A stretch of DNA of 56,072 bases from Steroidobacteraceae bacterium (GTDB lineage Bacteria > Pseudomonadota > Gammaproteobacteria > Steroidobacterales > Steroidobacteraceae), in NCBI GenBank assembly GCA_036496405.1, contig DASXLF010000564.1:1-56072 (forward strand), written 5' to 3'. A program made the translations under genes and the position numbers. Positions 4,049-51,249 of this stretch are shown in pieces. The first letter of the stretch is position 1; every line of letters begins with the position of its first letter. The notes under the pieces are model-generated. The model had not been told where the DNA came from, did no database searches, and worked only from the letters and a program-made list of their open reading frames with translations.

Positions 4049-4184
4049 CGAAGAGCTCCCCCGAAAATGTGAATGAGGTTGTTGCTGCAGTTGATACGAA
4101 CGGCACCGCAGATCGGATGCAATCGGGCACAAGAATTGTCGCTGTAGATTTTGCAGAGCGTTCGGCGCTCAAACCTCGGTTAGC

Positions 4185-12698: not shown

Positions 12699-13544
12699 CT
12701 ATTTGGGCTCGCTGCCCGGCTGGGCATCCTCCATCGGATAGGTGTGGACGGCTCCGGACCCGGGCGGCGGGCTCGAAGCAGGGGCGACAGTGGCCGGCGG
12801 CGGCGGTGGAGAGCCCGGTGCACTGCTGGAAGCAGCGGCGTCGGTGGTGCCGTTGGTGCTCGCGGCCACTGCGGCCAGGAAACGCCGGGCCGTTTCCGCA
12901 TGCGTGACGACCTTGCCGGTGGTGATCTCGGTAGTGGTCACTTCGTCGCCGTGATAGAAAGCATTGTTGGCGCGATGATCAAAGGCGATGACGGTGCCAT
13001 CGAGGGCGACACCGGCAAACAGGCCGCGCGAGCGGGAATAAGAGTAGATTTCGGCGTTGATGCCGGCGGCCGCTTCAGTCTGGCGGCCCACGGGGCCGGC
13101 TGCGACCGAGGCATCGGCGCCCAGGGTGAACTTGCCGCGCGCGAAATTCTCCACACTGCGCTGAGTCACGAACACCAGCACGACATCAGTGGAGGTCGCT
13201 CCGACCTGCCAGCCGACACTGCCGCCCGAAAGGCTGATGAAAATAGGGTTGCTGAACCGGCCCGATGCGTCGCGCACGCTGAGCACACCGTTGCCGTAGC
13301 GGCCGCCAAAAATGAACGCACCCTTGATGACTTCGGGGATTACCGCCACGCCATAGGCGCGTTGCATGAGCCAGTCAGGCACATTCTGGTCCGGCGTCGC
13401 CCGCAACTCCTCCAGTACCTGGGTGGAAGTGATGAGGCGCGCGTCCTCGCGGCTCTGGTCGGCCGTCTGCGCGAAAGCCTGGGGCAGGAATGCCATCAAC
13501 GTCGCGCCGCACAGCAGCAGGCGCTGAAATAAGGATCGGTTCAT
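12699..13544 (-). CDS. SYLF (Ysc84/DUF500) lipid-binding-domain secreted protein with Pro-rich tail
   Basis: I trimmed the start to the ATG at 13544 (MNRSLFQRLLLCGATLMAFLPQAFA, a signal peptide). The core carries AYGVAVIPEVIKGAFIFGGRYGNGVL...GGSVGWQVGA...FTLGADASVAAGPVGR, which is the SYLF pattern. The 407 aa track version runs back into the upstream gene. Confidence 0.8.
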   Translation of the reverse strand: MNRSLFQRLLLCGATLMAFLPQAFAQTADQSREDARLITSTQVLEELRATPDQNVPDWLMQRAYGVAVIPEVIKGAFIFGGRYGNGVLSVRDASGRFSNPIFISLSGGSVGWQVGATSTDVVLVFVTQRSVENFARGKFTLGADASVAAGPVGRQTEAAAGINAEIYSYSRSRGLFAGVALDGTVIAFDHRANNAFYHGDEVTTTEITTGKVVTHAETARRFLAAVAASTNGTTDAAASSSAPGSPPPPPATVAPASSPPPGSGAVHTYPMEDAQPGSEPK

Positions 13545-13588: not shown

Positions 13589-14758
13589 TCAGTACCAGAA
13601 GGAAATAAAGAACTGTGTGACGTTGGCGTCGAAAGAGTAGAGCGGCACGCCCACGGCTGAGCCGCCCACGGTGTAGTTGTGAAAGTCGTCGTAGGCCACG
13701 TGCAGCCGGTTGTAACTCAGGTTCAACGAGCCTTTTTCGATCCAGCGCGGCCAACTGGGATGGAACTGCCAGCTCGCCCCCAGCCCCAGCGTCAGGTCGT
13801 GAAACTGGGCTAATTCCCGGTCCCGGGACATGAAGTTCTGCGAGTCCTCGAAGGGGAACAGGTCGCTGTAGAAGTCCGCAGCCTTCTGGCGGTAATAACG
13901 GGCGTTCGCCGACAGCGTCCAACTGGTAAACAGCGGCTGCGTATAGCCCACTCCCAGGGTATGCGCCGTGATACCCCAGGTATCATGGTAAAAGCGGTAG
14001 TTACCATCGAGCGCGGCGTGCCACGGCAGGTAGTACTTCAGCTGCGCCGAGGCCGCATTGCCGGTGCGGGTATTGGGAGTGACCTGGTCTTCGGTCTGCA
14101 CCAATCCTTCGGGGTTCAGGTAGCGGGCAGAACGATAGGGACTCTGCAGATAACCGTCGCTCTCGTCGGTTTCGACGTTCACGGCCAGCAGCAGATTGCG
14201 CGTCAGGATTTGTGAGACGCTCGCCGTCCAATTGCGGTGATCGGCATCGCCGACCCAGGTCGTCATGCGGCCGCCATCGGCATAGCGGCCATTGAGATAA
14301 GTGTCCTCGCCCACCTTATCCCAGCCGCGCGAAAATCCGAACGACACCGTAGTGAGATCGCCGAACATCGACTGGCTGACCGAGAAGAAGGCGGTCCTGG
14401 CCTTGTAGTCCGGCTCGTTGCTCTCGATGTAGCCGGCGCTGTAGGTAGTGCTGCCACGCAGATAGTCGGCGCTCACACTGCCCTGCCTGCGGGTCTCCTT
14501 ATATGGGCTCGCGGTCGATAGCACGTCAACCGAGGCGCTGGAGATCATATCGACGTAGTAGTTGGCGGCCAGCGACAGCGAATCGGTGACCTTCTTGCGC
14601 ACCAGGATCGAGGGCCCTTCGACTGTGACACCGCCGCCTTCCCAGTCGTGGAACAGCAGGTCGGCGCGATCATCTGGAAGTACCGCAGCGCGCCCGGCCA
14701 TCGCCAGTGCGAACAGCGCCGCTATCAGGTTTCTGCCCCGGATACTGCTGCCAGCCAT
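13589..14758 (-). CDS. DUF3570-family outer-membrane beta-barrel protein
   Basis: Signal peptide followed by LLFHDWEGGGVTVEGPS. Alternating beta-strand patterns run throughout, and the protein ends in aromatic FISFWY. This matches my memory of DUF3570. Confidence 0.8.
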   Translation of the reverse strand: MAGSSIRGRNLIAALFALAMAGRAAVLPDDRADLLFHDWEGGGVTVEGPSILVRKKVTDSLSLAANYYVDMISSASVDVLSTASPYKETRRQGSVSADYLRGSTTYSAGYIESNEPDYKARTAFFSVSQSMFGDLTTVSFGFSRGWDKVGEDTYLNGRYADGGRMTTWVGDADHRNWTASVSQILTRNLLLAVNVETDESDGYLQSPYRSARYLNPEGLVQTEDQVTPNTRTGNAASAQLKYYLPWHAALDGNYRFYHDTWGITAHTLGVGYTQPLFTSWTLSANARYYRQKAADFYSDLFPFEDSQNFMSRDRELAQFHDLTLGLGASWQFHPSWPRWIEKGSLNLSYNRLHVAYDDFHNYTVGGSAVGVPLYSFDANVTQFFISFWY

Positions 14759-14998
14759 TTAGTTGCAGCCGCAGCCGCCGCCGACGCTGCCGGTCGCGCC
14801 ACGCGCGCCTTCGCGCACCTCGAATACGTGATCGAGGTAAGTGCTCGAGACCGGATTCGGGTCGAACGACATGATCGGGTCAGCCAGATGCTCGCGCTCG
14901 TACGGCTTGACCCACGGCTGCAACGGCGAACAGCCGCCCAGCAGCCCGATCGCCAAGGGCGCGAGCAGCGCGAGCATGCCGAGCCGGCGTCGCGTCAT
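14759..14998 (-). CDS. DUF4266-family small lipoprotein
   Basis: 79 aa with lipobox LLGGCS, then PWVKPYEREHLADPIMSF and a C-terminal GGGCGCN. Its stop codon directly abuts the DUF3570 ATG. Confidence 0.8.
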   Translation of the reverse strand: MTRRRLGMLALLAPLAIGLLGGCSPLQPWVKPYEREHLADPIMSFDPNPVSSTYLDHVFEVREGARGATGSVGGGCGCN

Positions 14999-15000
14999 CC

Positions 15001-15528
15001 CTACTCCCGCACCAAGCTTCGAATCTGATCCAGGTATTCGCTTTCCTCGCCGGGCTTATAGCCATGATGCACGTAGCGTACCTTGCCGGTGCGATCGAGT
15101 ATCACGGTGCTGGGCATGCCGGACACCTCGTACAGCTTACTGACCTTGCTGTCGGTGTCGAACAGTATCGGAAATGAGACAGGGGTGGACTTCAGGAAGC
15201 CCACGGCATCGGCGCTCTTGGGCTCAACGTTGACGCCCAGCAAGGTGAATCCGGCGGCCTTGTACTTCTTGTAGAGCTGGTCGAGCACCGGCATTTCCTG
15301 GCGGCATGGTCCGCACCAGCTGGCCCAGAAGTTGATCAGCACTACCTGGCCTTTGAGATCGCTCAGGGACATATCCTTGCTTCCCGAGGAGGGCAGTTCG
15401 AATCCGGGCGCCACCGCCCCGGCGGTGATACTGTCCGCTACGGCCGCGGCACTGAGGGCCAGCGCCACGCCACACACCAGAACCCGCACTGTCGTCCGCA
15501 CCTGATCATGGACCGCGCTTGCTTTCAT
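15001..15528 (-). CDS. TlpA-family periplasmic thiol:disulfide oxidoreductase
   Basis: I trimmed the start to the ATG at 15528, which has a GGAG SD. The protein has a signal/anchor segment and the thioredoxin motif FWASWCGPCRQEMP. It lies 2 nt upstream of the DUF4266 gene. Confidence 0.85.
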   Translation of the reverse strand: MKASAVHDQVRTTVRVLVCGVALALSAAAVADSITAGAVAPGFELPSSGSKDMSLSDLKGQVVLINFWASWCGPCRQEMPVLDQLYKKYKAAGFTLLGVNVEPKSADAVGFLKSTPVSFPILFDTDSKVSKLYEVSGMPSTVILDRTGKVRYVHHGYKPGEESEYLDQIRSLVRE

Positions 15529-15572: not shown

Positions 15573-16271
15573 CTAGAAGAATACGGTCGCACCAATGGTT
15601 GCCTGAAGATTGTTCTTCAGCTCCTCCACACCCGTGACGTCGGACCTGAAGACCAGGTCCTGCACGTCGATATGCAACGCCAGCCAATCCGTCGGCAGCA
15701 CCCTGAAGCCGGCCCCGAAGTTCACCGTGAAGTTTTGATCACCCGCGAACTTGACGCTGCCGATGCCGCCGAGCACGTAAAACGCGCTGGTCATGGCGAG
15801 ATTGCGACCGATGAAGATCTCGCCCGGGAGCAAGTTGTAGCCCAGAGACAGGTTGTAATACGTGAAGCGCCTCTCAGCATCGGAAAGCAATTGCACGTTG
15901 CTCAGCGTCTCAAAGCTGGTAAAGCCAGCCTTGGCGCGGCCGTAGGTCGCCTCGGCGAAGAAATCCTCGCTGATGTGATAATCGAAGCGCAGTCCCGCCA
16001 CCGGTTGCGAGCCGAAGTCCTGGATGGACAGCTCACCGTAATACGCTCCCAATTCAACGTTGCTGGGACGGATCGTCGGCACCTTGATGGTGCGCCGCTC
16101 CACCTGTGGCTCGATGACGCTGGGTGGCGGCGAGTCCTTGTCGCTGGCTCCCGACGTCTGGTCCGACGGCTGCACACCGTCATCCGGTTTGGCGTGCCGA
16201 TGGAACATGGCGCAGCCGCCGCAAGCGAGCGCAACGAAGCTCAGTAAAAGAATGCGAATCCGAGTTTCCAT
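15573..16271 (-). CDS. Outer-membrane beta-barrel lipoprotein, unknown function
   Basis: Lipobox-like LACGGC, a Pro/Ser-rich linker, then alternating amphipathic strands ending in ATVFF. Its ATG at 16271 lies 31 nt inside the upstream gene. Confidence 0.7.
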   Translation of the reverse strand: METRIRILLLSFVALACGGCAMFHRHAKPDDGVQPSDQTSGASDKDSPPPSVIEPQVERRTIKVPTIRPSNVELGAYYGELSIQDFGSQPVAGLRFDYHISEDFFAEATYGRAKAGFTSFETLSNVQLLSDAERRFTYYNLSLGYNLLPGEIFIGRNLAMTSAFYVLGGIGSVKFAGDQNFTVNFGAGFRVLPTDWLALHIDVQDLVFRSDVTGVEELKNNLQATIGATVFF

Positions 16272-17026
16272 TCGTTCTTGACCTCGTTGCTGTTTTGATT
16301 CGTCAGGACCTCATGCTCGCGCAACTCACCGCGCAGAAACAGTCGCCGGCTCAAGTAAAAGCGCACACCCAGTCCGACGTAGGCGGTCTGATTGCTGGAA
16401 CTGACCGGTTGCGCCAGCGTGGCCTTTGGTTCCACCCGCTCATAGCCGCCGCCGAGGGTTACAAACGGCGAAAGACGCCGATTGGGCAGGAACACGTGAC
16501 TGAAACCCAGGTCGATCAAATAGCCATTGGACAGATTGCCGAGAAACTGGGAGGCGGATAGTTCTATTTTCAGGTTGTCAGTCAGCGACAGTGCCTGATA
16601 AGCCGAAATCAGTGTGGCGCCGGCATAGGCGCCGCCAAATGCGCCGCTCTCCCAGCGATGACTGGCAAATCCGGCGAGATCGCCGAGATTGAGCTGGAAC
16701 GGCGTACCGTCCGCCAGGGTCGTGCGCATGAGGTCGCGTTCGTACGCCCAGCCCTCGACGCCGCGTTCGGTGCGGACCTTGAACCACTCGGTGCGTCGCA
16801 TCAACACGTCCACCGATTCGCCACGGGCCACCACCTGGGTGACCGGGTAGCCGCGGCCGGGTCCGGTGTGCAGCTCCAAATAGGGCTGCACGACGAACAA
16901 TTGCAGATAGTCGCGCGCACTGGCATCAGCCGCCGCCCCGAGCGAGAGCAGCAGCGCGGCGAGCAGGGGAGCGACCTTAGTTGGCCAGCGGCGCGTCGAA
17001 CGGGTTGTTGTAATACTGAGCTCCAA
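16241..17026 (-). CDS. Bacterial SH3-domain plus outer-membrane beta-barrel protein
   Basis: Signal peptide, then an SH3b-like segment (LELHTGPGRGYPVTQVVARGESVDVLMRRTEWFKVRTERGVEGWAYERDL). A beta-barrel-like C-terminal half ends in FAFFY. The only in-frame start ahead of the signal peptide is the TTG at 17026, which overlaps the upstream gene by 50 nt. Confidence 0.65.
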   Translation of the reverse strand: MELSITTTRSTRRWPTKVAPLLAALLLSLGAAADASARDYLQLFVVQPYLELHTGPGRGYPVTQVVARGESVDVLMRRTEWFKVRTERGVEGWAYERDLMRTTLADGTPFQLNLGDLAGFASHRWESGAFGGAYAGATLISAYQALSLTDNLKIELSASQFLGNLSNGYLIDLGFSHVFLPNRRLSPFVTLGGGYERVEPKATLAQPVSSSNQTAYVGLGVRFYLSRRLFLRGELREHEVLTNQNSNEVKNEWKLGFAFFY

Positions 17027-19760
17027 TATCCACCCACTCTGACAACAGCCGCAGCTCCGCTGCGGTCATGAACCCGGCATGGTTCACTGTCCCCGTCACG
17101 CTGCAGCCCATGCTGGCGCCGGTGATCGTCGCGAAAAAGCACGAGCCGTTGGCGCTGCCGGCGGCAATCGGACCGGGCACCGCTACCCCCGAGTCTACCA
17201 ACTGATTGGTCATGTTGAGTGATAAGACGTCGTGAGTCTCCACGAGCTGGGTATAGGCGCGCAACTGCGCGGTGGCACTTTGCGCCGGATCGGCATCGAG
17301 CTGCAGGTTGCCGTCGGGCGGCATCGGCACCGCCACACCTCCGACCATGGTGGTGCGGGTCGCGGTGTGGCAATTAGTGCAGGTATTGGCACCCAGCGGA
17401 TTCACGCTGATGTCACCGCGCACCATGCTCCACAACGGATCGATGATGGTCGGGTAGTTGATGATGCTCAGGCAATACCCCGACCATACGCCCACGCACG
17501 CCTGCACAATTGGCAGGTTCGAGGTCAGTGCGCTGTAGGCGTATGAAATGGGTGCGTTCGGACCGGTGGTATTGGTGTTGCCGTCGCCCCAGGCGTCGTT
17601 GAATATCACATCCGCGCTCAATGGCGCCGCCGATGGCGTGGCGGCGTTGTTGTTGCAACTGACACTGCCCACCAGTTCCTGCGCCATGGTGTCACCCGGG
17701 CATAGCGTCAGCGTCGGTACGCTGCCATTGCCGGCAGCGGTGAAAGTCGAGCCGTCGCCGGCGTTGAGAGCGGTGAATAGTCCGGCGCGGCCATGCGATC
17801 GGCCGCTGACCTCGACCGCGATGCCATCGGCGCCAGTGATCACCTGCGAACCTTGCGGGGTGTGACAACCATTACAGCTCAGCACTTCGCCCGGCTGTAC
17901 CGTCAACCAGGAGCGGTGCCGCGGGAAGTCCGGTAATGCCCTGGCATTGGCGTCCAGCACCGTGATCTGAAAGGCCACATTCGCCGGCACCATCACACGC
18001 ACCGAGCCGTCGGGCTCGATCGGTACGTAGCCGAGCAGCTGGCGCATGTAGCCCACTGAGCCGCCGAGCGCGATGTTGCGGTCGAATTTCGGAAACCCGT
18101 CCTTGAGCCGGGTATCGCCGAAAGCCACGGCCTTCTCGATGCGCAGGAATCGCGCTGGCCGGTTCGCGGCGCTGGCTGTAGCCACCGACCCCAGGCTGGC
18201 ATTGGCGCCGAGGCCGGCCGCGACACCGTCGCGATCGTAGACGCTGCGGATGTCGAGAATGCCGTAAGCGGGATCGAATCCCTGGGGTACCGCGGAGTCG
18301 AGCGGGCAACTGATAGTGTTGGTGCAGGGAATGGTGCGCGGCTCCAGCGACACCAGGTCACTGATCATCTCGCCTTCTACCGGCGCGAAGATGGGTTTCA
18401 GCGTGCTGTCGTTGAAATTGAGCAGCCAGGCGCTGTAGAGCGGCGGCGCGAGCGACAGACCGGTAGCGCTGGAGTTCACGTTGGCGAGGTTGTCGGCGCT
18501 GCACGCGACGATCACGCCGGTGGCATCCTGCAGCCGGCATTGACCCCAACTCACCAGCACGCGGTTGGTGCCGTCCCACAGGGGGAAGGCTGAATTGAAA
18601 CGCCCGCCCGGCGAGGGCACCGGCACGCCGTTGGCGGTTTGTGTACGCACGTCGTTCTGGGTGGCGGTGGTTTGTGCGGTCGCGGCAGTCGGGTAGAGCG
18701 TGTCGGGCAGCGACTGATTATTTTCGGCGAAGCCGTCGATGTTGATGATCTGCAGATTGCCGCCGAAGTCGGCATCGGCAAACGGGCGTACCAGCGCCAG
18801 CACGCGACCGTCCTGCAACTGGCGCGTGTTCACGAATTGCACCGCGCAGCTCAGGCCCGACGGGCACTGTGCGGCGTCCGACGGATTGGTACTGCTGGTC
18901 TCGTGGCTTTGCGCGCCGTACAGCAACTGCACGCCGGTGCCATCGGGATTGGCACTGTAGAGATGCATGGCGCTGCCGCCGGTGCGCCCCGGCGTGTTGT
19001 CCCAGCGGCTCCACATGATGCGACCGCTGGACATCAACGAGGCGTCGACGTCATGACTGGGGTTGTATGAGATCTGATGAATGCCGGTGCCGTCAGCATT
19101 CATTACTTCCAGCAGAAAATCCGAGGTGTTCTGCGACTCGGTCTGGGCTTCGAACGGTTGCACGTTCTCGCCAGTGCCGCCTTCATTGATCAACACCTCG
19201 CGCGATGTGGTCTGGCGTGTCGAGGAGAAGACGATGCGGCCGTCGGTGAGATAGTGCGGGCCGACATCGTTGGCATTGGGTTCGGTGTCGACACTGGTGC
19301 CAGTCAGCTGGCTCAGCACTTTTCCCGGCACATTGTATTGCCAGATGTGCCAACTCGGGGGCGAGAAATCCTGTTGGTTCGGAGTGATCGGGCCACGCAT
19401 GGCGAATACCAGCAAGGTGCCATCCGGCGACACGTCCAGGTCTTTCACATCCCAGACATCGGTGCCGGTGACGCTGGCGGTAATGTTCTGTTCCACGCCG
19501 GTGGGACTGGCGCTGGTGCGCACATAGACATCGGCCTTGCCCCAGTAGTTGCGCGGGAGCGTCACGTCGTCCTTGGCGCGCAGTTGTGCCAGGCCGGCGG
19601 CGTCGGCCGGCAGCGTGCGTTTGACGTAGGCAATCGCGAAGTCGATGTTCAATCCGCTCGAGGACTGACCCTTGCCGATATTGAGATCACCGCGACTGCT
19701 GCAGGCAGCGATGATTGCCGCCGCGAGCGCGATGCCCAGCGTGCGTGTTTGACGTCTCAT
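16977..19760 (-). CDS. Large lipoprotein: TolB-like beta-propeller plus C-terminal dihaem c region (hydrazine synthase alpha-subunit-like architecture)
   Basis: Lipobox AIIAACSS, with propeller-type repeats (VSPDGTLLVF, LTDGRIVFSS, NADGTGIHQIS, ANPDGTGVQLLY). There are two CxxCH motifs, CNGCH at 17862-17876 and CTNCH at 17367-17381. The start is either the ATG at 19760 or the TTG at 19769. Confidence 0.8.
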   Translation of the reverse strand: MRRQTRTLGIALAAAIIAACSSRGDLNIGKGQSSSGLNIDFAIAYVKRTLPADAAGLAQLRAKDDVTLPRNYWGKADVYVRTSASPTGVEQNITASVTGTDVWDVKDLDVSPDGTLLVFAMRGPITPNQQDFSPPSWHIWQYNVPGKVLSQLTGTSVDTEPNANDVGPHYLTDGRIVFSSTRQTTSREVLINEGGTGENVQPFEAQTESQNTSDFLLEVMNADGTGIHQISYNPSHDVDASLMSSGRIMWSRWDNTPGRTGGSAMHLYSANPDGTGVQLLYGAQSHETSSTNPSDAAQCPSGLSCAVQFVNTRQLQDGRVLALVRPFADADFGGNLQIINIDGFAENNQSLPDTLYPTAATAQTTATQNDVRTQTANGVPVPSPGGRFNSAFPLWDGTNRVLVSWGQCRLQDATGVIVACSADNLANVNSSATGLSLAPPLYSAWLLNFNDSTLKPIFAPVEGEMISDLVSLEPRTIPCTNTISCPLDSAVPQGFDPAYGILDIRSVYDRDGVAAGLGANASLGSVATASAANRPARFLRIEKAVAFGDTRLKDGFPKFDRNIALGGSVGYMRQLLGYVPIEPDGSVRVMVPANVAFQITVLDANARALPDFPRHRSWLTVQPGEVLSCNGCHTPQGSQVITGADGIAVEVSGRSHGRAGLFTALNAGDGSTFTAAGNGSVPTLTLCPGDTMAQELVGSVSCNNNAATPSAAPLSADVIFNDAWGDGNTNTTGPNAPISYAYSALTSNLPIVQACVGVWSGYCLSIINYPTIIDPLWSMVRGDISVNPLGANTCTNCHTATRTTMVGGVAVPMPPDGNLQLDADPAQSATAQLRAYTQLVETHDVLSLNMTNQLVDSGVAVPGPIAAGSANGSCFFATITGASMGCSVTGTVNHAGFMTAAELRLLSEWVDIGAQYYNNPFDAPLAN

Positions 19761-19879
19761 TATCTCCAAGCTCCGTTACCGCTTGATTGAGAGTTCATTC
19801 TTTGGCGCTTCAATGCGATGTGATCCCGGTCTCAGTTTTTAACCCTGCATTCAACGATACGATAACGTTGATACGTAAT

Positions 19880-19915
19880 GAGCCGTGATGTCTGTGCTTT
19901 GAGACATTACGGCTC
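19880..19915. repeat. 14-bp imperfect inverted repeat (hairpin) in the divergent intergenic region
   Basis: GAGCCGTGATGTCT (19880-19893), loop gtgctttg, AGACATTACGGCTC (19902-19915). There is one G/A mismatch, which would be a G:U pair in RNA. Confidence 0.3.
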
Positions 19916-19964: not shown

Positions 19965-19976
19965 CAGGGAGTGATG

Positions 19977-21158
19977 ATGAGCACAGCAGGGACACGCAGC
20001 AGCGCCGCGCGGCACGCGACGAGCTTGATGCTCGCTGCACTCCTAGGATTTCAGCCGCTGGCCCCGCTCATTGCCGGAGCTAACGAACAGGCCGCTCGCA
20101 TGCACAGCCGTCTGGCCGGCGTACCGCCCAGCAGCGCGGTGCTTGCGCAGATGGCGACGCTGATCAGCAACAACAATGCGCAGGCTGCGGCGCAGCTGGC
20201 GATGAACAACAGCGGCTTCTACAACGTGACGCTGCGCAATTTCATCGCGCCGGCGACCAATCGCGCGCAGTCGCCGTTCGTGCCGCTCAACGACTACACC
20301 GCCACCGTCATCGGCATGATCCGCGACAATGTGCCGTTCAACACGGTGCTGTCGGCGGATCTGCTCTACATAGGCAACGTCAGCGGCGCACCGCCGTATT
20401 CGCCGAGCAACAATAATCACTACCAGTATCTCGACGACCACGGCGTGGACCTGAAATCCGCGCTTGTTGCGACGACGCAGTCCTCGCTTACCGGCATACC
20501 GTCTTCGGCCACCGCCGGGGTGATCACCACCGAGGCGGCGGCGGCGGCGTTTTTCATTGCCGGCACTAATCGCGCGATGTTCCGCTTCACCATGATCAAC
20601 TACCTGTGCAATGACATGCCGCAGGTCATGGATATCTCGCGGCCGCCGGATCGCATCCGCCAGGACGTCAGCCGCTCACCCGGCGGAGACAGCCGCGTGT
20701 TCCTGAATAATTGCATCGGTTGCCACGCCGCCATGGATCCCATGGCGCAGGCATTCGCGTACTACAACTACGATCCGACGGCGCTGCAGCTGGTCTACAC
20801 GCCCGGGCAGACGCAGGCGAAGTATCACATCAACACTGGCAACTTCCCGTATGGCTTTGTCACGCCGGACGACTCATGGGACAACCGCTGGCGTACCGGA
20901 CCGAATGCATTACTGGGCTGGAGCCCGGGGCTGCCCGGCAGCGGCAATGGCGCCAAGTCGCTGGGGCAGGAATTGGCCAGCAGTCAGGCGTTCGCCGACT
21001 GTCAGGTGCAGAAGGTATTTCAGGCCATATGCCTGCGTCCGCCGAGTAATGCTGCCGATCGCACCGAGGCGGCGCAAATCGTCGCCGACTTCAAGTCCGG
21101 CGGATACAACATGAAGCAGGTCTTTGCCGAGACTGCCGCGTACTGCATGGGTAACTAG
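19977..21158 (+). CDS. Secreted monohaem protein, DUF1585/DUF1588-like (Planctomycete PSCyt/PSD-type)
   Basis: I chose the ATG at 19977, 5 nt after the AGGGAG SD; the track uses the TTG at 19959. It has a signal-like N-terminus. CIGCH at 20712-20726 sits in the context NNCIGCHAAMDPMAQAF, which resembles the C..CH...DP.G motif I recall for DUF1588. Confidence 0.75.
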   Translation: MSTAGTRSSAARHATSLMLAALLGFQPLAPLIAGANEQAARMHSRLAGVPPSSAVLAQMATLISNNNAQAAAQLAMNNSGFYNVTLRNFIAPATNRAQSPFVPLNDYTATVIGMIRDNVPFNTVLSADLLYIGNVSGAPPYSPSNNNHYQYLDDHGVDLKSALVATTQSSLTGIPSSATAGVITTEAAAAAFFIAGTNRAMFRFTMINYLCNDMPQVMDISRPPDRIRQDVSRSPGGDSRVFLNNCIGCHAAMDPMAQAFAYYNYDPTALQLVYTPGQTQAKYHINTGNFPYGFVTPDDSWDNRWRTGPNALLGWSPGLPGSGNGAKSLGQELASSQAFADCQVQKVFQAICLRPPSNAADRTEAAQIVADFKSGGYNMKQVFAETAAYCMGN

Positions 21159-21189: not shown

Positions 21190-23691
21190 GTGAATCGAAT
21201 CCGTCCCCGTCCGCCGACTCTGGTGCTCCAGCTGGCCCTGCTGGGGCTGGTCGCCTGTTCCGGCGGCGCACCCACGACGCAGAATCCGAACACTGCCGTC
21301 ACCACCGCATCCGTGTACGCCGGGCCGGCGCCGGCATCGGCGGACGTCGAGGCGTTCAAGGTCAATCTGTGGCAGAACATCAATATGGCGTCGCGCTGCG
21401 GTGGCTGCCACAAAGCCGGCGGACAGTCGCCGATGTTCGCGCGCAGCGACGATGTCAACCAGGCCTATAGCGCCGCGCTCACGGTGGTCAATCTCACGCA
21501 GGCCGATCAGTCCACCATGGTGGTCAAGGTCGCGGGCGGACACAATTGCTGGCTCTCGAGTCCGTCGGCGTGCGCGGACATTCTCACCACATGGATTCAG
21601 AACTGGGCCGGAGGCGGCTCGGGCGGCGCTGCCGGCTCGACACAGATCGTGCTCACCGCGCCGGTCGATCAGGCGGTGGGACCGACCAAGCAGTTCCCGG
21701 CCGACTCATCGCTGTTCTCCAGCACGGTGTATCCGTTGCTGACCATGTTCTGCTCGCGCTGCCATTCCCCGAATGCGACCGTGCCGCAGTCGCCGTATTT
21801 CGCCAGCAGCAACGTCGATCAGGCGTACGCCGCGGCGCAGGCCAAGATCGACCTGAATGATCCGACGCTCTCGCGCTTCTACGTGCGCCTGGCGACGGAA
21901 TCGCACAATTGCTGGCCGACCACGACCGGTGGCCCGGTGGACTGCCCCGGAAGCGCCGCCCGCATGCTGGCGGCGATCCAGGCCTATGCCAATGCCGTGC
22001 CGACCACGCCGGTGGATCCGACGCTGGTAGTGTCGCGCGCCCTCACGCTCTACGCCGGTACGGTCGCCTCCGGCAATAATCGCTATGACGCCGACATCAT
22101 TGCCCGCTGGCTGTTCAAAGAGGGCAGCGGCAGCACCGCCTTCGACACCAGCGGCGTCGATCCGGCGATCAACCTGACGATCTCGGGCAATACCAACTGG
22201 GACAGCGCCTGGGGCCTGATCTTCGGCACTGGCGGCGCCAAGGCCCAGGGCTCGACCGCCACCAGCAGCAAAATCTTCAGCGCCATCAACACCAGTGGCC
22301 AATATTCGCTCGAGCTGTGGGCCGCGCCGGCCAACGTCACCCAGACCATGGCCTTCATGGGGGGCTACTCCGGCGGCACCGCGGCGCGCAATTTCACGCT
22401 CGCCCAGGATGCCATGCAGTATCAGGCGTACGGGCGCAGCACCGTCACTGATGCCAATGGCGCGCCGCCATTGACTACTGCTGCCGCCAATATGAATGCG
22501 CAGGCGGCATTGCAGCACATCGTCCTCACCTACGATCCCACTCACGGACGTCAGCTGTTCGTCAACGGCAACTTCACCGGTGACTTAGACCCGCTGACCG
22601 GCGGCACGCTCGGCAACTGGGACAACACCTTTGCCTTCCTGCTCGGCAATGAAACGTCCAATGACCGGCCATGGCAGGGAGAAATCCGTTTTGCCGCGGT
22701 CCACAACCACGCCATGACGCTGGCGCAGATTCAGGAGAACTACGCCGCCGGCGTCGGCCAGCTCTACTATTTGTTGTTCGACGTCAGTGCGCTGACCGGT
22801 GTCTCGCAGAGCTACATCATGTTCACCGCCAGCCAGTACGACAATTACAGCTATCTGTTTGACAAGCCGACGTTCATCAGTCTCAACCCGAAGGCACAGC
22901 CCGGAAATATTCCGATCAAGGGCCTGTACATCGGCATCAACGGTCAGGAAGCGGCGGTCGGCCAGGCTTACAGCACGCTGAATACCACGGTGAGCAACGC
23001 CAATTATTCACCCACCGCCGGTCAGCTGCTGTCGAGCATGGGTACGGTGTTGCCCATGCAGCTCGGGCCGGCGACCGATCTGTTCTTTCTGAGCTTCGAT
23101 CAGATCGGCACCAACACCCACGTGCGCACCTCGCCCACTCCCACGGCGCCGACGCCCACGGATCTCGCGCCTTCGGCCGATATTGGGCTGCACGTGTACG
23201 ATGAACTCAACGCCTCGATGGCGGGCATCACCGGAGTATCTCCAGGCCTGAGCGCGGTCAACACCACCTATCAGACCGTGGAGCAGCAATTGCCAACGGT
23301 AGCGAATATCCAGGGCTTCCTGCCGTCGCAGGAAATCGGTATCTCGCAGCTGGCAATCCAGTACTGCAATGCGCTGGTCAACGACAGTACGCTCGAGCCG
23401 GCATTCTTCCCTGGCCTGAATCTGAACCAGACTCCGGCAGCGGCGTTCGGTACCACCGCCGGCATGGACCTGGTGATCACGCCGCTGATCAACAGTCCCG
23501 CCATCGGTGCCGGTCTGGCCAGCCAGCCCACGGCCGCGCAGGTGCGCACCGAGCTCTACAGCCTGATGACGAACCTCGTCAACTGCAGCGTCAGTGATCC
23601 GACCTGCGTGCAGACCCCGACGCGTACCCAGACCATCACCAAGGCCGTGTGCGCCACCGTGCTCGGCAGCGCGACGACTTTGATCAAGTAG
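21190..23691 (+). CDS. Lipoprotein with duplicated CxxCH haem-c module and central LamG/concanavalin-like domain
   Basis: I chose the GTG at 21190, which has a GGGAG SD; this gives VNRIRPRPPTLVLQLALLGLVAC/SG with a lipobox. CGGCH is at 21397-21411 and CSRCH at 21751-21765, each followed about 45-55 aa later by HNCW. LamG-like hallmarks are present (WLFKEGSGSTAFDTSG...LFVNGNF...WQGEIRFAAVHNHAMTLAQIQENY). Confidence 0.75.
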   Translation: MNRIRPRPPTLVLQLALLGLVACSGGAPTTQNPNTAVTTASVYAGPAPASADVEAFKVNLWQNINMASRCGGCHKAGGQSPMFARSDDVNQAYSAALTVVNLTQADQSTMVVKVAGGHNCWLSSPSACADILTTWIQNWAGGGSGGAAGSTQIVLTAPVDQAVGPTKQFPADSSLFSSTVYPLLTMFCSRCHSPNATVPQSPYFASSNVDQAYAAAQAKIDLNDPTLSRFYVRLATESHNCWPTTTGGPVDCPGSAARMLAAIQAYANAVPTTPVDPTLVVSRALTLYAGTVASGNNRYDADIIARWLFKEGSGSTAFDTSGVDPAINLTISGNTNWDSAWGLIFGTGGAKAQGSTATSSKIFSAINTSGQYSLELWAAPANVTQTMAFMGGYSGGTAARNFTLAQDAMQYQAYGRSTVTDANGAPPLTTAAANMNAQAALQHIVLTYDPTHGRQLFVNGNFTGDLDPLTGGTLGNWDNTFAFLLGNETSNDRPWQGEIRFAAVHNHAMTLAQIQENYAAGVGQLYYLLFDVSALTGVSQSYIMFTASQYDNYSYLFDKPTFISLNPKAQPGNIPIKGLYIGINGQEAAVGQAYSTLNTTVSNANYSPTAGQLLSSMGTVLPMQLGPATDLFFLSFDQIGTNTHVRTSPTPTAPTPTDLAPSADIGLHVYDELNASMAGITGVSPGLSAVNTTYQTVEQQLPTVANIQGFLPSQEIGISQLAIQYCNALVNDSTLEPAFFPGLNLNQTPAAAFGTTAGMDLVITPLINSPAIGAGLASQPTAAQVRTELYSLMTNLVNCSVSDPTCVQTPTRTQTITKAVCATVLGSATTLIK

Positions 23692-23714: not shown

Positions 23715-25307
23715 ATGAAGATCAGACGCAAGCGGCCCCTGGGGCTGCACGACCCGCTCCGCCACCCGGATCATCCGCGGCCTTTCAGCCGCAGGGATTT
23801 CCTGGCGCAGGGCTTCATGCGTGGTGCCGCCACCGTTGCGGGCATGTCAGTCTTCAGTCTGTTTGCCGATCCGCGCAAGGCGTACGCCACGCTGGCGCCG
23901 GACATTGCCGCACTCAAGGCTTCGCCGTGCAACATCACCACCGGCTCGGGCATGATTCCTTTTATCTGCTTCGACCTTGCCGGCGGCGGCAACATTGCCG
24001 GCTCCAACGTGCTGGTCGGCGGCGGTGGCGGTCAGATGGATTTCCTGTCCACCGCTGGCTATAACCGCCTCGGACTGCCCGGCAACATGATCCCCAATGG
24101 CTCCGCCGGGATCGGCAACTTCATCGATCAAAGTCTGGGTCTCGCGTTTCACAGCGACAGCGCCTATCTGCGCGGCATTAAGCAGCGCATCGCCGTGGCG
24201 ACCGCGGCCAACGTCAATGGGGCGGTCATGCCGGCGATGAGCGAGAACGATACTGGCGACAACCCTCACAACCCCATGTACGGAATCTATAGTTCCGGCT
24301 ATGCGGTGTTGACCCCGCCGGCGGGGGATAAGGGCGACCTGCTGGCGCTGATCGGGACCGAGAGCTCAACCTCCGGCGGAAATTCCATGGCGCCGTCGTA
24401 CATGATCGACCCGACCGTGCCTCCGACCAAAGTCTCGCAGGCTTCGGATGTGACCGGGCTGGTGAGCACCGGCCAGCTGGTCGGACTGCTCAGCCAGAGC
24501 GATGCGACATTGGTGCTCGAATCGATCGAGCGCATCAGCAAGAACAAGCTCGATTCGGTCGACACCCTGCTCGGTACCCAGGACGCGGTGGTCAAGGACC
24601 TGGTGCAGTGCGGCTACGTGGGCGCGGCCGATCAGGTGGATCGCTACGGCAATGCCAGCGCGACTTTGAATCCCGACATGGACACCGCGATCGTCGGCCC
24701 GGGCGGTATATTCACCACCGCCGAGTACCAGGGTGACGCGAATTTCCGCGCCACCGCCGCGGTCATGAAAATGGTGGTGAACGGTTATGCGGCCGCCGGC
24801 ACCGTCGAACTCGGCGGCTACGACTACCACACGGGTGATCGTGCCACCGGCGAGATGCGCGATGTCGAAGCCGGTCAGTGCATCGGCGCCTGCCTGGAGT
24901 ACGCGGCGCGCATGGGACAGCCGCTGATGATCTATGTATTCACCGATGGCTCCGTGGTGTCGAGCGGCATGATCGACAATTCGGCGGGCGGTCGCGGCAA
25001 GGGTGTATGGACATCCGATAACCAGACCACCGCGGCAACGTTCTTCCTGGTCTACAACCCCAACGGCCGGGCGACCACGATCTCCAACCAGATCGGCAGC
25101 TACACCAGCGACGGTAACGTCAACACGACCTCCAGCCCCGGCGCCAACGCCGTCAACCTGCTGGCTGAGACCGTGGTATTGAACTACCTGGCGCTGCATA
25201 ACAAGGCCGGTGCGTTCCAGACGTTGCAGTGGGCCAGCGGTCTTGGCACCGGCTTGGGTAGTGCCAGCGCCTACGATGCGTTGATCGCTCTGGCGCCTAT
25301 TCGTTAG
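23715..25307 (+). CDS. Tat-exported protein, DUF1501/DUF1552-like (sulfatase-fold-like) partner
   Basis: ATG at 23715 with a GAGG SD 8 nt upstream. The twin-arginine motif FSRRDFLAQG is at 23787-23804. GGYDYHTGD is reminiscent of the GGWDTH motif of DUF1501. The family call is tentative. Confidence 0.7.
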   Translation: MKIRRKRPLGLHDPLRHPDHPRPFSRRDFLAQGFMRGAATVAGMSVFSLFADPRKAYATLAPDIAALKASPCNITTGSGMIPFICFDLAGGGNIAGSNVLVGGGGGQMDFLSTAGYNRLGLPGNMIPNGSAGIGNFIDQSLGLAFHSDSAYLRGIKQRIAVATAANVNGAVMPAMSENDTGDNPHNPMYGIYSSGYAVLTPPAGDKGDLLALIGTESSTSGGNSMAPSYMIDPTVPPTKVSQASDVTGLVSTGQLVGLLSQSDATLVLESIERISKNKLDSVDTLLGTQDAVVKDLVQCGYVGAADQVDRYGNASATLNPDMDTAIVGPGGIFTTAEYQGDANFRATAAVMKMVVNGYAAAGTVELGGYDYHTGDRATGEMRDVEAGQCIGACLEYAARMGQPLMIYVFTDGSVVSSGMIDNSAGGRGKGVWTSDNQTTAATFFLVYNPNGRATTISNQIGSYTSDGNVNTTSSPGANAVNLLAETVVLNYLALHNKAGAFQTLQWASGLGTGLGSASAYDALIALAPIR

Positions 25308-25477: not shown

Positions 25478-26017
25478 GTGCGAGTGCGGCTGAAGCATCG
25501 AGCGAACCGAACTGCCGGGCTCTGCCTGTGGTTGTATTGCGGCCTGCACTGGGGCGCCGCAACCGCGGCCAGTCCCGGCATCGTGGCACAGCGCGCGCCG
25601 GATTTTGCGCTGCCGGCAGCCGTTGGCGACAACGTGCGGCTGTCCGAATTCCGCGGCCAACCCGTGGTGCTCACATTCTGGAGCAGCCGCTGCAGTACCT
25701 GCGCGGCACAACTTGCGGCACTCGATCGTTACTACGCAACCTACCGCTCATCAGGTCTGGTGGTGCTGGGCGTCAGTGTCGAGGATGATCCGCAGCGCGC
25801 CTTACAATATGCGCGCGCACACTCGACTGCGTATCCGTTGCTGCTCGATCAGGCCAAGGCAGTTGCCCGCGCCTATGAGATCGAGCGCCTGCCGACTACG
25901 GTACTGATCGATCGCTCCGGCGTCGTGCGCTACCTGCACAGCGATGATCATCCCGCTGATACGTCCTACGTGACACAGATCCGCGCCTTGCTGGACGACA
26001 AAGTGGGCGCCCCATGA
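25478..26017 (+). CDS. TlpA/ResA-like periplasmic redoxin with CSTC active site
   Basis: Thioredoxin-fold pattern APDFALP...GQPVVLTFWSSRCSTCAAQL...YPLLLD...LPTTVLIDRSG, with a signal-like N-terminus. The GTG start is uncertain by a few codons. Confidence 0.8.
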   Translation: MRVRLKHRANRTAGLCLWLYCGLHWGAATAASPGIVAQRAPDFALPAAVGDNVRLSEFRGQPVVLTFWSSRCSTCAAQLAALDRYYATYRSSGLVVLGVSVEDDPQRALQYARAHSTAYPLLLDQAKAVARAYEIERLPTTVLIDRSGVVRYLHSDDHPADTSYVTQIRALLDDKVGAP

Positions 26018-26667
26018 ACTCTCTCACATCAATGCAGTCTCCCATGAACACAATGATTCGCCGTCTATCGTCGAGCTTCTGGCCGTTGCTGCTGCTGCCG
26101 CTCACCACTCCTGCATGGTGCGCCCAGCCGGCCGCGCCCGCCGCCGCCAGTGCTCCCGCGGCCCAGGCCGAGTCCGCTGCGTCCAAGAGCGATGCCGCTG
26201 CCGCCGATGCCGGCGGCGGCACGCGTGGGCTGGACGAGCAGATCCAGGACCTCAAGAAGGATGTCGTGGATCTCAACAAGGATCTGTTCGTGCTCGAAGA
26301 GGAACTGCTGTTTCCGGCCAACACGCAAGTGGCGGTGTTCGTGTCGATGGACGTCGGCGATTTCTTCGCCCTGGATTCGATCTCGCTGAAGATCGACAAT
26401 AAAGATGTCAGCGACTACCTGTATACCCCGCGAGAAGTGGCGGCATTGCTCAAGGGCGGGGTGCAGCGCCTGTACGTCGGCAATCTCAAGTCCGGCGAAC
26501 ACGAACTGGTGGCGCTGTTCAATGGCAAGGGACCGCACGAGCGCGACTACCGGCGCGCCGCCAACCTGCGCTTCGAAAAGGGCGTTGGTGCGAAGTACCT
26601 GGAACTGAAGATCACGGATCACCAGCGTGCGCAGCAACCCGAGTTCGAAATCAAGGATTGGGAATAG
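26014..26667 (+). CDS. Secreted protein, unknown function (coiled-coil plus beta-rich domain)
   Basis: The start overlaps the redoxin stop in ATGA. It has a signal peptide (FWPLLLLPLTTPAWC/AQP), an Ala-rich linker, a coiled-coil LDEQIQDLKKDVVDLNKDLFVLEEELL and then a beta-rich domain. I recognise no family. Confidence 0.65.
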   Translation: MNSLTSMQSPMNTMIRRLSSSFWPLLLLPLTTPAWCAQPAAPAAASAPAAQAESAASKSDAAAADAGGGTRGLDEQIQDLKKDVVDLNKDLFVLEEELLFPANTQVAVFVSMDVGDFFALDSISLKIDNKDVSDYLYTPREVAALLKGGVQRLYVGNLKSGEHELVALFNGKGPHERDYRRAANLRFEKGVGAKYLELKITDHQRAQQPEFEIKDWE

Positions 26668-26674
26668 CGGGCGT

Positions 26675-28621
26675 ATGAGCGGCTGGCGTTTCGGACTGGG
26701 ATTGTGCGCGCTGCTGGCGGGTGTCGGCCTGACGCCTGCGCAAGCCGCGCATAAGAGCGATCCGAACAAGCTGCCGAGCATTCGCGTGCAGGACCTGCAC
26801 TACGGCGAGGTGCTGTTCCAGTTCTACTCCGGCCAGGAATTCCAGGCGCTCACCGAACTCGAGGCCTTCAGCCAGTGGCATCGCATGCCGCATCACGCCG
26901 CTGATGCGGACCTGCTGGCCGGTGGCCTGTATCTCGAACTCGGCATGCACAACGAGGCGGGACGGCGCTTCGAGCGCCTGCTCACCGACAACATTCCCGT
27001 CGGTGTGCGCAATCGCGCCTGGTTCTATCTGGCGAAGATCTGGTACGAACGCGGCTACTACGAGCGTAGCGAACAGGCGATCGGTCGCATACAAGGCACC
27101 CTGGACACGCAACTCGAGGCTGAGCGGGTGCATCTGCTGGTCAACGCACTCATGCGCCAGCAACGCTACGACGACGCCATCGCATTGCTCCGGGGCTGGC
27201 ACGGCCCCGCGGATTGGATGGCCTATGCAGGCTTCAACCTGGGGGTGGCACTGGTGCGCGCCGGACGCCTGCCGGAAGCCGATCCGATCCTGACATCGGT
27301 TGGCACGCTCAACACCAGCAGCGATGAATTGCTGAATCTGCGGGACAAGGCCAATCTGGCGTTGGGATTCGCCTACCTGCAGGCCGATCAGAGCGCCAAG
27401 GCGCGTGCGCCGCTGGAACGCGTGCGGTTGAACGGGCCGTACTCGAGCCGCGCCTTGCTCGGTGACGGTTGGGCACATGCTGCACAAGGCGAGTATCGCG
27501 CTGCGCTCACACCCTGGCTCGAACTTCGTCAGCGCAATCTGCTGGACGCGGCGGTGCAGGAATCGTTCCTCGCCGTTCCCTATGCCTTCAGTAAACTCAA
27601 TGCCAATGGCCAGGCGGCCGACTACTACGAGTCGGCGCTGAGCTCATTCGCCAGCGAGTCGGACAATCTCGACTCGGCGATCGCGAATATTCAGCAAGGC
27701 CACATGCTCGATGACCTGCTGGGCGACGACAAGGACGCGCGCTACGGCTGGTTCTGGCAGCTCAAGGCCTTGCCCGACTCGGCGCAGTCGCGCTATCTCT
27801 ACTCAATACTGGCGGACAACGATTTTCAGGAAGGGCTCAAAAACTATCGCGATCTGGCGTTCCTGCAGGGCACCTTGCGGCACTGGGATGACAGCATGGA
27901 GGCGTTCGCGGCGATGATCGAGACCCGTCAGCGCGCATACGCCGAGCGACTGCCGCGCGCCGACGCGCTGCTCAACAGCGACACTCAGACGCGACTGCGC
28001 GACGCGCGTGTCGCTGTCGGATCGCAGCTCGATGCGGCCGAGACCGGTAACGACGTGGCCGCGCTCGGCACGCCGACCGAGCGCGAACAATGGGCGCACC
28101 TGGCCCGGCTTGCCGATGTGTTGGCCAGCATGCCGCCCGGTTCCGAGCGTGATGCGGCCCGCGACAAGCTGCGACTGATCAAGGGTGTGCTGTATTGGCG
28201 GTTGGACGCCAGCTTCAAGGAACGCGCCTACGAACAACGGCACTCGTTGCGCGAACTGGACGCGGCGCTCGATGAGTTGCAGAACCGCTGGGTACGCGTG
28301 CAGCAGGCGCGCGCCACGGTGCCGAACGATACCGGTGAATACGCGGTTCGTATCGCCGCGCTGGCAGTTCGCGTCCAGGCCATGCATAAGCGCCTGGAGC
28401 AATCGTCGCAACAGCAGAGCAAATACCTGGATGAGCTGGCTGAATCGGAATTGCGCGCACAGAAGCAGCGTCTCGATGCTTATGCCCTGCAGGCGCGCTA
28501 CGCGCTGGCGGACATTTACGATCGCGCCGACGATCAGCAGGGGGCGGCCAAGAAGCCGGACGCACCTGGCGCCGGAGATGCGGCGCCGCCGGTCCCGGTT
28601 CCGGTCCCGGAGTCGCAATGA
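26675..28621 (+). CDS. Secreted TPR-repeat protein (about 648 aa)
   Basis: I chose the ATG at 26675 (MSGWRFGLGLCALLAGVGLTPAQA, a signal peptide). The N-terminal half has TPR-like repeats and the C-terminal half has long coiled-coil segments. Confidence 0.75.
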   Translation: MSGWRFGLGLCALLAGVGLTPAQAAHKSDPNKLPSIRVQDLHYGEVLFQFYSGQEFQALTELEAFSQWHRMPHHAADADLLAGGLYLELGMHNEAGRRFERLLTDNIPVGVRNRAWFYLAKIWYERGYYERSEQAIGRIQGTLDTQLEAERVHLLVNALMRQQRYDDAIALLRGWHGPADWMAYAGFNLGVALVRAGRLPEADPILTSVGTLNTSSDELLNLRDKANLALGFAYLQADQSAKARAPLERVRLNGPYSSRALLGDGWAHAAQGEYRAALTPWLELRQRNLLDAAVQESFLAVPYAFSKLNANGQAADYYESALSSFASESDNLDSAIANIQQGHMLDDLLGDDKDARYGWFWQLKALPDSAQSRYLYSILADNDFQEGLKNYRDLAFLQGTLRHWDDSMEAFAAMIETRQRAYAERLPRADALLNSDTQTRLRDARVAVGSQLDAAETGNDVAALGTPTEREQWAHLARLADVLASMPPGSERDAARDKLRLIKGVLYWRLDASFKERAYEQRHSLRELDAALDELQNRWVRVQQARATVPNDTGEYAVRIAALAVRVQAMHKRLEQSSQQQSKYLDELAESELRAQKQRLDAYALQARYALADIYDRADDQQGAAKKPDAPGAGDAAPPVPVPVPESQ

Positions 28622-32585: not shown

Positions 32586-32664
32586 ATCGCGGTATTGCGC
32601 GTTTGCGTCACTTTAGTTTGACCATATCGGTGGATCATAGCGTTCAGGCATGGGAGTCAGCACG

Positions 32665-33321: not shown

Positions 33322-33347
33322 CACGGCTTTAGGCCCAGGTAGCGCGC

Positions 33348-34384: not shown

Positions 34385-34400
34385 GGCGGAGATCAAGAGG

Positions 34401-45658: not shown

Positions 45659-45673
45659 GCCAGACGCCGCACC

Positions 45674-51234: not shown

Positions 51235-51249
51235 CGGCTGCCAGGTCTG

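Follow-up and report, generated by a model that had tools for sequence, protein, structure and literature searches.

We report that the minus-strand gene at 16977-19760 in a 56,072-nucleotide (nt) stretch of Steroidobacteraceae bacterium DNA (assembly GCA_036496405.1, contig DASXLF010000564.1; "the window" denotes this whole stretch) encodes a distant two-haem relative of HzsA, the anammox hydrazine-synthase alpha subunit, in an ordinary soil gammaproteobacterium. The protein is not a hydrazine synthase. The existence of HzsA-related proteins has already been catalogued and so is not new in itself; what is new is an invariant nine-gene module around this gene and the recurrent attachment of that module to an Agl/Glt-type core complex. 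We see about an even chance that the protein is the redox subunit of an envelope module. An original prediction, made from the sequence without database searches, had recognised the HzsA-like layout; it missed that the HzsA-specific active-site residues are absent, that homologues were already published and that the gene is part of a larger conserved locus.

An open reading frame (ORF) check confirmed an ORF at 16977-19769 on the minus strand of the window. The start codon predicted at 19760 is the likely one, because GGAG sits five bases 5' of this ATG. The predicted lipobox, TolB/DPP-IV-like propeller and middle domain were each recovered: as a signal sequence with Cys20, as Foldseek matches to TolB structures (~440 columns, E ~3e-9) and S9 peptidase propellers, and as the Pfam domain HZS_alpha (PF18582). 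Only a weak PD40 match was seen in the propeller. A Ser at position +2 of a lipoprotein directs it to the outer membrane through Lol sorting. Because the protein carries Ser at this position, we infer that it is anchored in the outer membrane. Residues G24, I28 and Q32, just past the lipidated Cys, are conserved and could form a docking strand.

We observed a clear relationship to HzsA at three levels. A search with the middle-domain hidden Markov model, proposed as a check in the original prediction, returned HZS_alpha at E 1.3e-16 and 61.3 bits against a gathering cut-off of 26.6, as the sole significant Pfam domain. In HMMER comparisons with HzsA (PDB 5c2v_A), the propeller, middle domain and C-terminal domain matched collinearly, at E 2e-5 for the single sequence and E 1.7e-12 for a 30-sequence profile, and HzsA was the only sequence relative among solved structures. 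The AlphaFold2 model was of moderate quality (predicted local distance difference test, pLDDT, 65.8; predicted template-modelling score, pTM, 0.65), and its best PDB match in Foldseek was again 5c2v_A (E 4.8e-25, TM 0.47/0.56, 984 columns), whereas the TolB and S9 peptidase propellers trailed HzsA by sixteen orders of magnitude and covered only ~440 N-terminal residues. These results support the HzsA-like layout. The C-terminal 328 residues gave no match to the PDB by phmmer, and an 89-residue HzsA fragment searched against the protein collection returned only two short fragments. A C-terminal half resembling cytochrome-c peroxidase (CCP) was considered as well; the profile matches were weak (E 0.035) and were rejected as evidence because they probably reflect mere CxxCH spacing.

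The two haem motifs, CNGCH (residues 629-633, haem 1) and CTNCH (residues 794-798, haem 2), lie exactly at the predicted coordinates. Both had been placed in a C-terminal region; this holds for haem 2, which lies in the C-terminal domain, while haem 1 closes the middle domain, as in HzsA. All residue correspondences with HzsA rest on HMMER alignments to 5c2v_A, whose residue numbers run 27 lower than those used in the papers; the HzsA motif there reads CSGCH(560)YGSY(564).

We next considered how well these sites are kept, using 128 full-length representatives that are 33-68% identical. The residues of haem 1 (C629, C632, H633) are retained in 124-127 and those of haem 2 (C794, C797, H798) in 125-128 of the 128 relatives, the lipobox Cys20 in 124 and His894, the equivalent of the distal ligand His772 of HzsA, in 122; both motifs, Cys20 and His894 are thus each present in at least 95%. 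His615, His656-Gly-Arg and the Cys pairs C408/C420 and C755/C763 each reach at least 93%, and Glu625 is another family-specific invariant residue; it lies, like His615 and His656-Gly-Arg, close in sequence to haem 1. Conservation across relatives this divergent argues that the haem-site and lipobox features are not due to chance, and because the CxxCH motifs are conserved, the two haem sites stand.

The family is large. At least 1821 relatives are present in the protein collection, and PF18582 occurs in all the homologues. When representatives clustered at 50% identity were searched exhaustively, 2955 clusters reached E <= 1e-3, of which 377 reached E <= 1e-30. Relatives are encoded in at least 597 species-representative genomes, the best 80 being nearly all Steroidobacterales-type Gammaproteobacteria. 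The host of the window is itself a Steroidobacteraceae-type gammaproteobacterium, in keeping with the predicted non-anammox character of the genome, and a cultured relative from Teredinibacter (WP_316954572.1) already carries the name 'HzsA-related protein'.

A genuine hydrazine synthase alpha subunit, or another N-N bond-forming enzyme in a cryptic anammox-like pathway, would share the fold and the HZS_alpha domain; we nevertheless regard this explanation as extremely improbable. Against the NCBIfam equivalog for HzsA (NF052339) the protein scores 50.3 bits, from two short stretches, where the cut-off is 800. HzsA itself ligates haem alpha-I through Tyr591, while its motif residue His587 turns instead to a zinc ion that it shares with Cys303 (PMC12607021, PMC12758564). 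The HzsA sequence CSGCHYGSY corresponds to CNGCHTPQG in the window protein, and positions 634-637 are variable and Tyr-free in the 128 relatives, so that no Tyr591 equivalent is found. The residue aligned with Cys303 is not Cys, and that stretch of the propeller is variable among the relatives (HMMER and 128-sequence alignment). The features of haem alpha-II, C794TNCH and a His894 aligned with His772, are present, and in keeping His772 the protein differs from clade I homologues (PMC12758564), which speaks for the hydrazine-synthase explanation. The gene content speaks against it. As predicted, no hzsB- or hzsC-like gene was found in the 56 kb; Pfam and NCBIfam gave no match to a beta (propeller) or gamma (CCP/MauG-like dihaem) subunit in the window or in related loci, and no hydrazine dehydrogenase gene was found in the window. 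The window encodes three credible CxxCH proteins; the two besides the HzsA-like protein, g399 and g855, are unrelated to CCP, and a CCP/MauG domain is absent from all three. Furthermore, the host order consists of heterotrophs, and the gene also occurs in the cellulolytic Teredinibacter.

Homologues outside anammox have been described before. Hagglund et al. (2025) reported more than 600 fold-level matches annotated 'HZS_alpha domain-containing protein', none with a confirmed function, and sorted homologues into clades I-IV from Planctomycetota, Desulfobacterota and others, with genes adjoining fused beta-gamma homologues (PMC12758564). A broader family of hzs-like enzymes acting on other substrates was suggested by Dalcin Martins et al. 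(2023, PMC10732223). The prediction that the function of such proteins outside anammox is unknown therefore agrees with the literature (PMC12758564, PMC10732223).

The gene belongs to a fixed module of nine: besides the HzsA-like gene, it encodes a Tat-exported protein and two further cytochrome-c proteins, two small barrels, a TlpA-like redoxin, DUF4266 and DUF3570. The barrels and the thioredoxin-fold protein had been noted in the original prediction, and both barrels are of the outer-membrane type. In the window the locus consists of two divergent operons around the HzsA-like gene, with six minus-strand genes running from the HzsA-like gene through DUF3570 and three plus-strand genes for exported proteins. 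We compared the locus proteins by tblastn with 80 species-level loci (GTDB), 36 of which had full 10-kb flanks. The nine core genes were all present in 36/36 of these, while the outer genes (EamA, TonB-dependent receptor) were not conserved among them. This set of nine, in unchanged order, was also found around homologues that are only 33-42% identical, in Teredinibacter sp. KSP-S5-2, an Alteromonadaceae-type contig and three other contigs.

Several members were characterized further. The last 50 nt of the HzsA-like gene also lie within the SH3_3-barrel ORF (16241-17026), and the two small barrels show no detectable pairwise similarity as paralogues. The redoxin (15001-15528) matches the NCBIfam models for ResA and TlpA below their cut-offs. 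The Tat (twin-arginine translocation) protein, g552, is one of a very large family (of 8000 candidates scored, 7999 were significant; one member is misnamed 'GspF') for which no Pfam or NCBIfam model was found. Its predicted structure (pLDDT 61) gave no significant Foldseek match, the best being E 0.13; the top non-significant matches are all from the alkaline-phosphatase superfamily, at which the conserved FDLAGG and GGxDYH motifs also hint; this is a lead only. Searches of the neighbour proteins against the PDB returned nothing meaningful. The 217-residue protein (26014-26667) does not occur in the locus as found in Teredinibacter and Alteromonadaceae. In Alteromonadaceae-type loci, a gene for a MarR-family regulator, possibly a local one, lies beyond the Tat-protein end (L084 2771-3208, L088 234-671).

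In the divergent promoter region, a nested palindrome (19873-19912) is conserved and may be an operator. A TATACGCAC box lies near it on the g399 side, and box and palindrome are kept in loci with proteins that are 45-85% identical. A scan of this intergenic region found no promoter or terminator, and there was no Rfam match.

Directly continuing the cytochrome operon on the plus strand, we found a set of genes (26627-35312) that corresponds to the core complex of the Agl/Glt machinery. Several genes of the locus overlap by 4 to ~40 nt, and the operon runs on into the TolQ-, TolR- and GltG-like genes through start and stop codons that overlap. This complex comprises GltC, GltD, GltE, an extra gene, AglR, AglQ, AglS and GltG (Luciano et al. 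2011, PMC3169522). Gammaproteobacteria such as Teredinibacter, Saccharophagus, Cellvibrio, Marinobacter and Shewanella carry it as a gene cluster of unknown function (PMC3169522). In Teredinibacter, a cluster encoding proteins of 324, 177, 183, 219, 94, 245 and 955 residues adjoins the nine genes, and its sizes and order mirror TERTU_3740-3745 and the complete clusters of other species, such as Sde_3560-3567, in the published table (PMC3169522). The core-complex proteins of the window are orthologous to this cluster. The TonB-family protein at 34305-35312 is 40% identical to the 324-residue protein and matches the GltG model at E 1.8e-12; in the 1153-residue tetratricopeptide repeat (TPR) protein, residues 775-932 match the 955-residue and residues 950-1115 the 245-residue TPR protein of Teredinibacter.

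We then assessed the linkage of the two gene sets in a metagenome scan anchored on the Teredinibacter ExbB, scoring parts of the nine-gene module within 10 kb. Twelve ExbB-anchored loci carry such parts, and 10 of these 12 have a full 10-kb upstream flank; a similar number of long loci carry none. Across all the loci that we examined, three arrangements were seen: the three-gene arm directly upstream of the core complex and co-oriented with it, as in the window; the other arm, which runs from the HzsA-like gene through DUF3570, directly upstream and co-oriented; and module and core complex convergent, as in Teredinibacter. The linkage thus survives rearrangement, which argues for functional coupling. 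We found no report of a link between a cytochrome/redox module and the core complex in the examined literature on HzsA-related proteins, DUF3570/DUF4266 and Cellvibrionales Glt homologues.

The linkage also brings to mind a mainly structural role. A model of the Agl-Glt machinery has a propeller lipoprotein, CglB, held by the outer-membrane barrels GltA, GltB and GltH, which dock onto GltC (PMC11761067). The HzsA-like protein could likewise be a TolB-like lipoprotein serving as partner or cargo of the Glt-like machine, as CglB does in the Myxococcus Agl-Glt system, with haems that stabilise the fold or sense redox state. Its TolB-like propeller, its lipidated N-terminus with the conserved G24, I28 and Q32, and the linkage to TolQR-, GltG- and CpoB-like genes all fit this idea. 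We nonetheless consider it improbable, as five CxxCH sites in three proteins, two redoxins, DUF4266 and DUF3570 point to real redox chemistry, and few residues of the protein are as well conserved as the haem ligands.

A possible thiol/flavin relay is suggested by the DUF3570, DUF4266 and thioredoxin genes. DUF3570 was experimentally shown to be a substrate of ApbE flavinylation. Where its gene clusters with those for ApbE, a thioredoxin-like protein and a DUF4266 protein bearing a CXC motif, the set was proposed to act in extracytosolic electron transfer, with DsbD feeding it (Meheust et al. 2021, PMC8238504). HZS_alpha is not mentioned in the examined supplementary files of that paper (PMC8238504).

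The reading to which we give an even chance, a redox subunit of an envelope module, can be put in terms of a mechanism. The protein would be a c-type dihaem lipoprotein with the three-domain fold of HzsA, anchored in the outer membrane and facing the periplasm. Haem 2 (Cys794, Cys797, His798, distal His894) is most likely a low-spin bis-His electron relay, like haem alpha-II of HzsA. Haem 1 (Cys629, Cys632, His633) would sit at the junction of propeller and middle domain, in the position of the alpha-I active site, with ordinary His ligation in place of the Tyr/Zn arrangement; it may be a second relay centre or a substrate-facing site, with His656 or His615 as a possible sixth ligand. Electrons could be exchanged with the monohaem and dihaem partners and with a putative thiol/flavin relay made up of the TlpA-like thioredoxin, DUF4266 (CXC) and DUF3570, so that the module would move electrons between the periplasm and a substrate close to the outer membrane. 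The Glt-like complex, co-transcribed with the module here, probably positions or energises its outer-membrane part, by analogy with Agl-Glt/CglB (PMC11761067).

The same position of haem 1 would suit a stand-alone catalytic enzyme, in which a five-coordinate haem 1, fed through haem 2, acts on hydroxylamine, NO, H2O2 or a sulfur compound, the neighbours only mature or supply the enzyme, and the Glt-like motor is unrelated. We judge this unlikely, though it deserves serious consideration. The propeller motif QI[ST][FY]N.S.D is common to HzsA (DQITYNLSSNFD), alternative substrates have been proposed for hzs-like enzymes (PMC10732223), and the core complex is missing near some loci. However, the protein lacks the Tyr and Zn ligands specific to HzsA, haem 1 could be six-coordinate through the conserved His656 or His615, an invariant nine-gene set exceeds the needs of maturation, and the locus contains no pointer to a small-molecule pathway.

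Several observations also weigh against a redox subunit of an envelope module. The AlphaFold model is poor near the haem regions (residues 634-676 and 749-791). The HzsA-like protein is the least conserved and fastest-evolving of the locus proteins: its median identity is 41%, whereas the other proteins reach 46-78%. About half of the ExbB-anchored loci show no module, and the Alteromonadaceae-type loci have no core complex within 10 kb. Because such loci are unlinked, the coupling of module and core complex is not obligatory; that half of the loci are unlinked agrees with the fact, known from Luciano et al. 2011 (PMC3169522), that one genome can hold several paralogous core complexes. As for the relay, the window thioredoxin is of the Redoxin/TlpA type (PF08534) and not PF13899 as in the Meheust system (PMC8238504), and the redoxins could simply serve cytochrome-c maturation. 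ApbE and DsbD genes are absent from the window and from loci L001, L002 and L083-L088, at the locus level only. The Gly of the flavinylation motif [S/T]GA[S/T] is replaced at both sites of the window DUF3570 (DMISSAS and DVLSTAS) and in most orthologues (SSAS, TSAS, SAAS); D..[ST]xAS is kept at site 1, with Gly in a minority only, and site 2 is degenerate.

A broader proposal, possible but doubtful in our estimation, is that, in Gammaproteobacteria, this nine-gene set represents the output module hitherto missing from the ancestral Agl/Glt core complex. The complex would then be an envelope-spanning machine driven by the proton-motive force that positions or energises outer-membrane redox chemistry, rather than motility or sporulation, and the HzsA-fold protein would be the propeller-bearing outer-membrane lipoprotein of the module.

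Table 1. Features of the HzsA-like gene, its module and the adjoining core complex (window coordinates).
Feature	Position	Strand	Evidence or remark
HzsA-related dihaem lipoprotein	16977-19760	minus	927 amino acids (aa); Pfam, HMMER, Foldseek, alignment
Signal peptide and lipobox	19701-19760	minus	N-terminus MRRQTRTLGIALAAAIIAAC followed by SS, i.e. ...AAIIAAC followed by SS
TolB-like propeller	~18336-19643	minus	Foldseek to TolB structures
HZS_alpha middle domain	17862-18059	minus	Pfam PF18582, residues 568-633
Haem site 1, CNGCH, residues 629-633	17862-17876	minus	End of middle domain; aligns with HzsA haem alpha-I CSGCH
Haem site 2, CTNCH, residues 794-798	17367-17381	minus	C-terminal cytochrome-c-like domain
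His894	17079-17081	minus	Aligns with HzsA His772 (distal ligand, haem alpha-II) in HMMER alignments
SH3_3 domain and small outer-membrane beta-barrel, secreted	16241-17026	minus	Pfam SH3_3, OMP_b-brl; 36/36 loci
Outer-membrane beta-barrel, TIGR04565 OMP_myx_plus type, probable lipobox	15573-16271	minus	151 bits against cut-off 60; 36/36 loci
TlpA/ResA-like periplasmic thiol-disulfide oxidoreductase, WCGPC	15001-15528	minus	Pfam Redoxin E 9e-29
DUF4266 lipoprotein, 79 aa, ends GGGCGCN (CXC motif)	14759-14998	minus	Pfam E 2.2e-22; C-terminus conserved
DUF3570 protein, motifs DMISSAS and DVLSTAS	13589-14758	minus	Pfam E 3e-45; motif survey
Ysc84/SYLF-domain secreted protein, accessory member	12699-13544	minus	29/36 loci
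Secreted monohaem protein, CIGCH at 20712-20726	19974-21158	plus	Weak PSCyt3 and PSD2 (DUF1588/DUF1585) similarity; 36/36 loci
Dihaem LamG lipoprotein, CGGCH 21397-21411, CSRCH 21751-21765	21190-23691	plus	36/36 loci
Tat-signal (RRDFL) protein, 530 aa, no Pfam domain	23715-25307	plus	Conserved FDLAGG and GGxDYH motifs
Second thioredoxin-fold protein, CSTC motif	25478-26017	plus	Specific to Steroidobacterales-type arrangement
Secreted 217-aa protein, no family match	26014-26667	plus	Most conserved in locus, median identity 78%
Conserved nested palindrome	19873-19912		Divergent promoter region: ACGTAATG..GATGTCT..AGACATTACGG; kept in L001, L003, L014, L018
GltC-like periplasmic TPR protein, 664 aa	26627-28621	plus	Weak TPR and YbgF matches; size and position fit PMC3169522 table
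GltD-like/GltE-like fused TPR protein, 1153 aa, CpoB/YbgF-type repeats	28618-32079	plus	TIGR02795 100 bits against cut-off 90
Small secreted protein, 'additional gene' of gammaproteobacterial core complex	32076-32585	plus	Position/orthologue comparison
TolQ/ExbB/AglR-like proton channel	32650-33321	plus	ExbB 59% identical to Teredinibacter
Two TolR/ExbD/AglQS-like proteins	33348-33863, 33860-34384	plus	Domain matches
GltG-like TonB-family protein, AgmX/PglI C-terminal domain	34305-35312	plus	NF033768 66.7 bits against cut-off 40

Elsewhere in the window, a DUF4331 protein (E 1e-142) adjoins a TPR protein upstream of the locus (2501-4132 and 1043-2233, both minus strand), forming an exported pair. 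An ordinary GlgE-pathway alpha-glucan cluster occupies 43574-53427 on the plus strand (GlgE, TreS-maltokinase fusion, GlgB and a CBM48 debranching-type enzyme), and a class-III aminotransferase and delta-aminolevulinate dehydratase (hemB) are encoded at 53424-55678 on the strand opposite to it.

The clade of the window protein is the first HzsA-fold group outside anammox with fixed, informative partner genes, and it occurs in cultivable and genetically tractable bacteria, namely Teredinibacter and probably relatives in Cellvibrio and Saccharophagus. Its repeated juxtaposition with the core complex, in several arrangements, provides a testable cargo candidate for the core complex of non-gliding Gammaproteobacteria. 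The finding also bears on the origin of the hydrazine synthase alpha subunit, in that the anammox-specific Tyr/Zn site appears to be younger than both the propeller/middle-domain architecture and the alpha-II haem with a distal His.

Compared with HzsA itself (kuste2861; 5c2v chain A), the window protein has the same three domains: the propeller, a middle domain that closes with a CxxCH haem, and a cytochrome-c-like domain at the C-terminus that supplies the second CxxCH and the distal His. The propeller motif QI[ST]YN.S..D is shared as well. In contrast to HzsA, it is a lipoprotein with ~150 extra residues and a wholly different gene context, and the identity in the Foldseek alignment is ~14%. 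The clade I-IV homologues (PMC12758564) are likewise HZS_alpha proteins from outside anammox; their haem alpha-I pocket is canonical, and they too are devoid of Tyr591 and Cys303. However, they lack the haem alpha-II site or its distal His772, whereas the window clade keeps both haems and the His772 equivalent. Their genes lie among fused beta-gamma homologues, FG-GAP/CRTAC1 and ABC substrate-binding genes; relative to the published HzsA homologues, the window clade is distinguished by being a lipoprotein and by a nine-gene module of entirely different partners.

TolB shares with the window protein a beta-propeller of the six-bladed type (E ~3e-9; TM 0.5 on the TolB side) and an association with TolQR- and CpoB-like genes, but the window protein is a lipoprotein with ~450 extra residues and two haems and is encoded outside a tol-pal operon. 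The Meheust system (PMC8238504) has in common with the window the row of DUF3570, DUF4266 with a C-terminal CXC and a thioredoxin-fold gene, all exported; in the window, this trio is joined to three cytochrome-c proteins. Finally, the Luciano core complex (PMC3169522) agrees with the window in the order and sizes of the GltC/D/E-like, small, TolQ-, two TolR- and GltG-like genes, where the putative Glt identities of the window TPR proteins are drawn from the order and sizes in Table S3 and from Teredinibacter orthology. It differs in that GltD and GltE are fused in the window and that the complex is co-operonic with cytochrome and redox genes.

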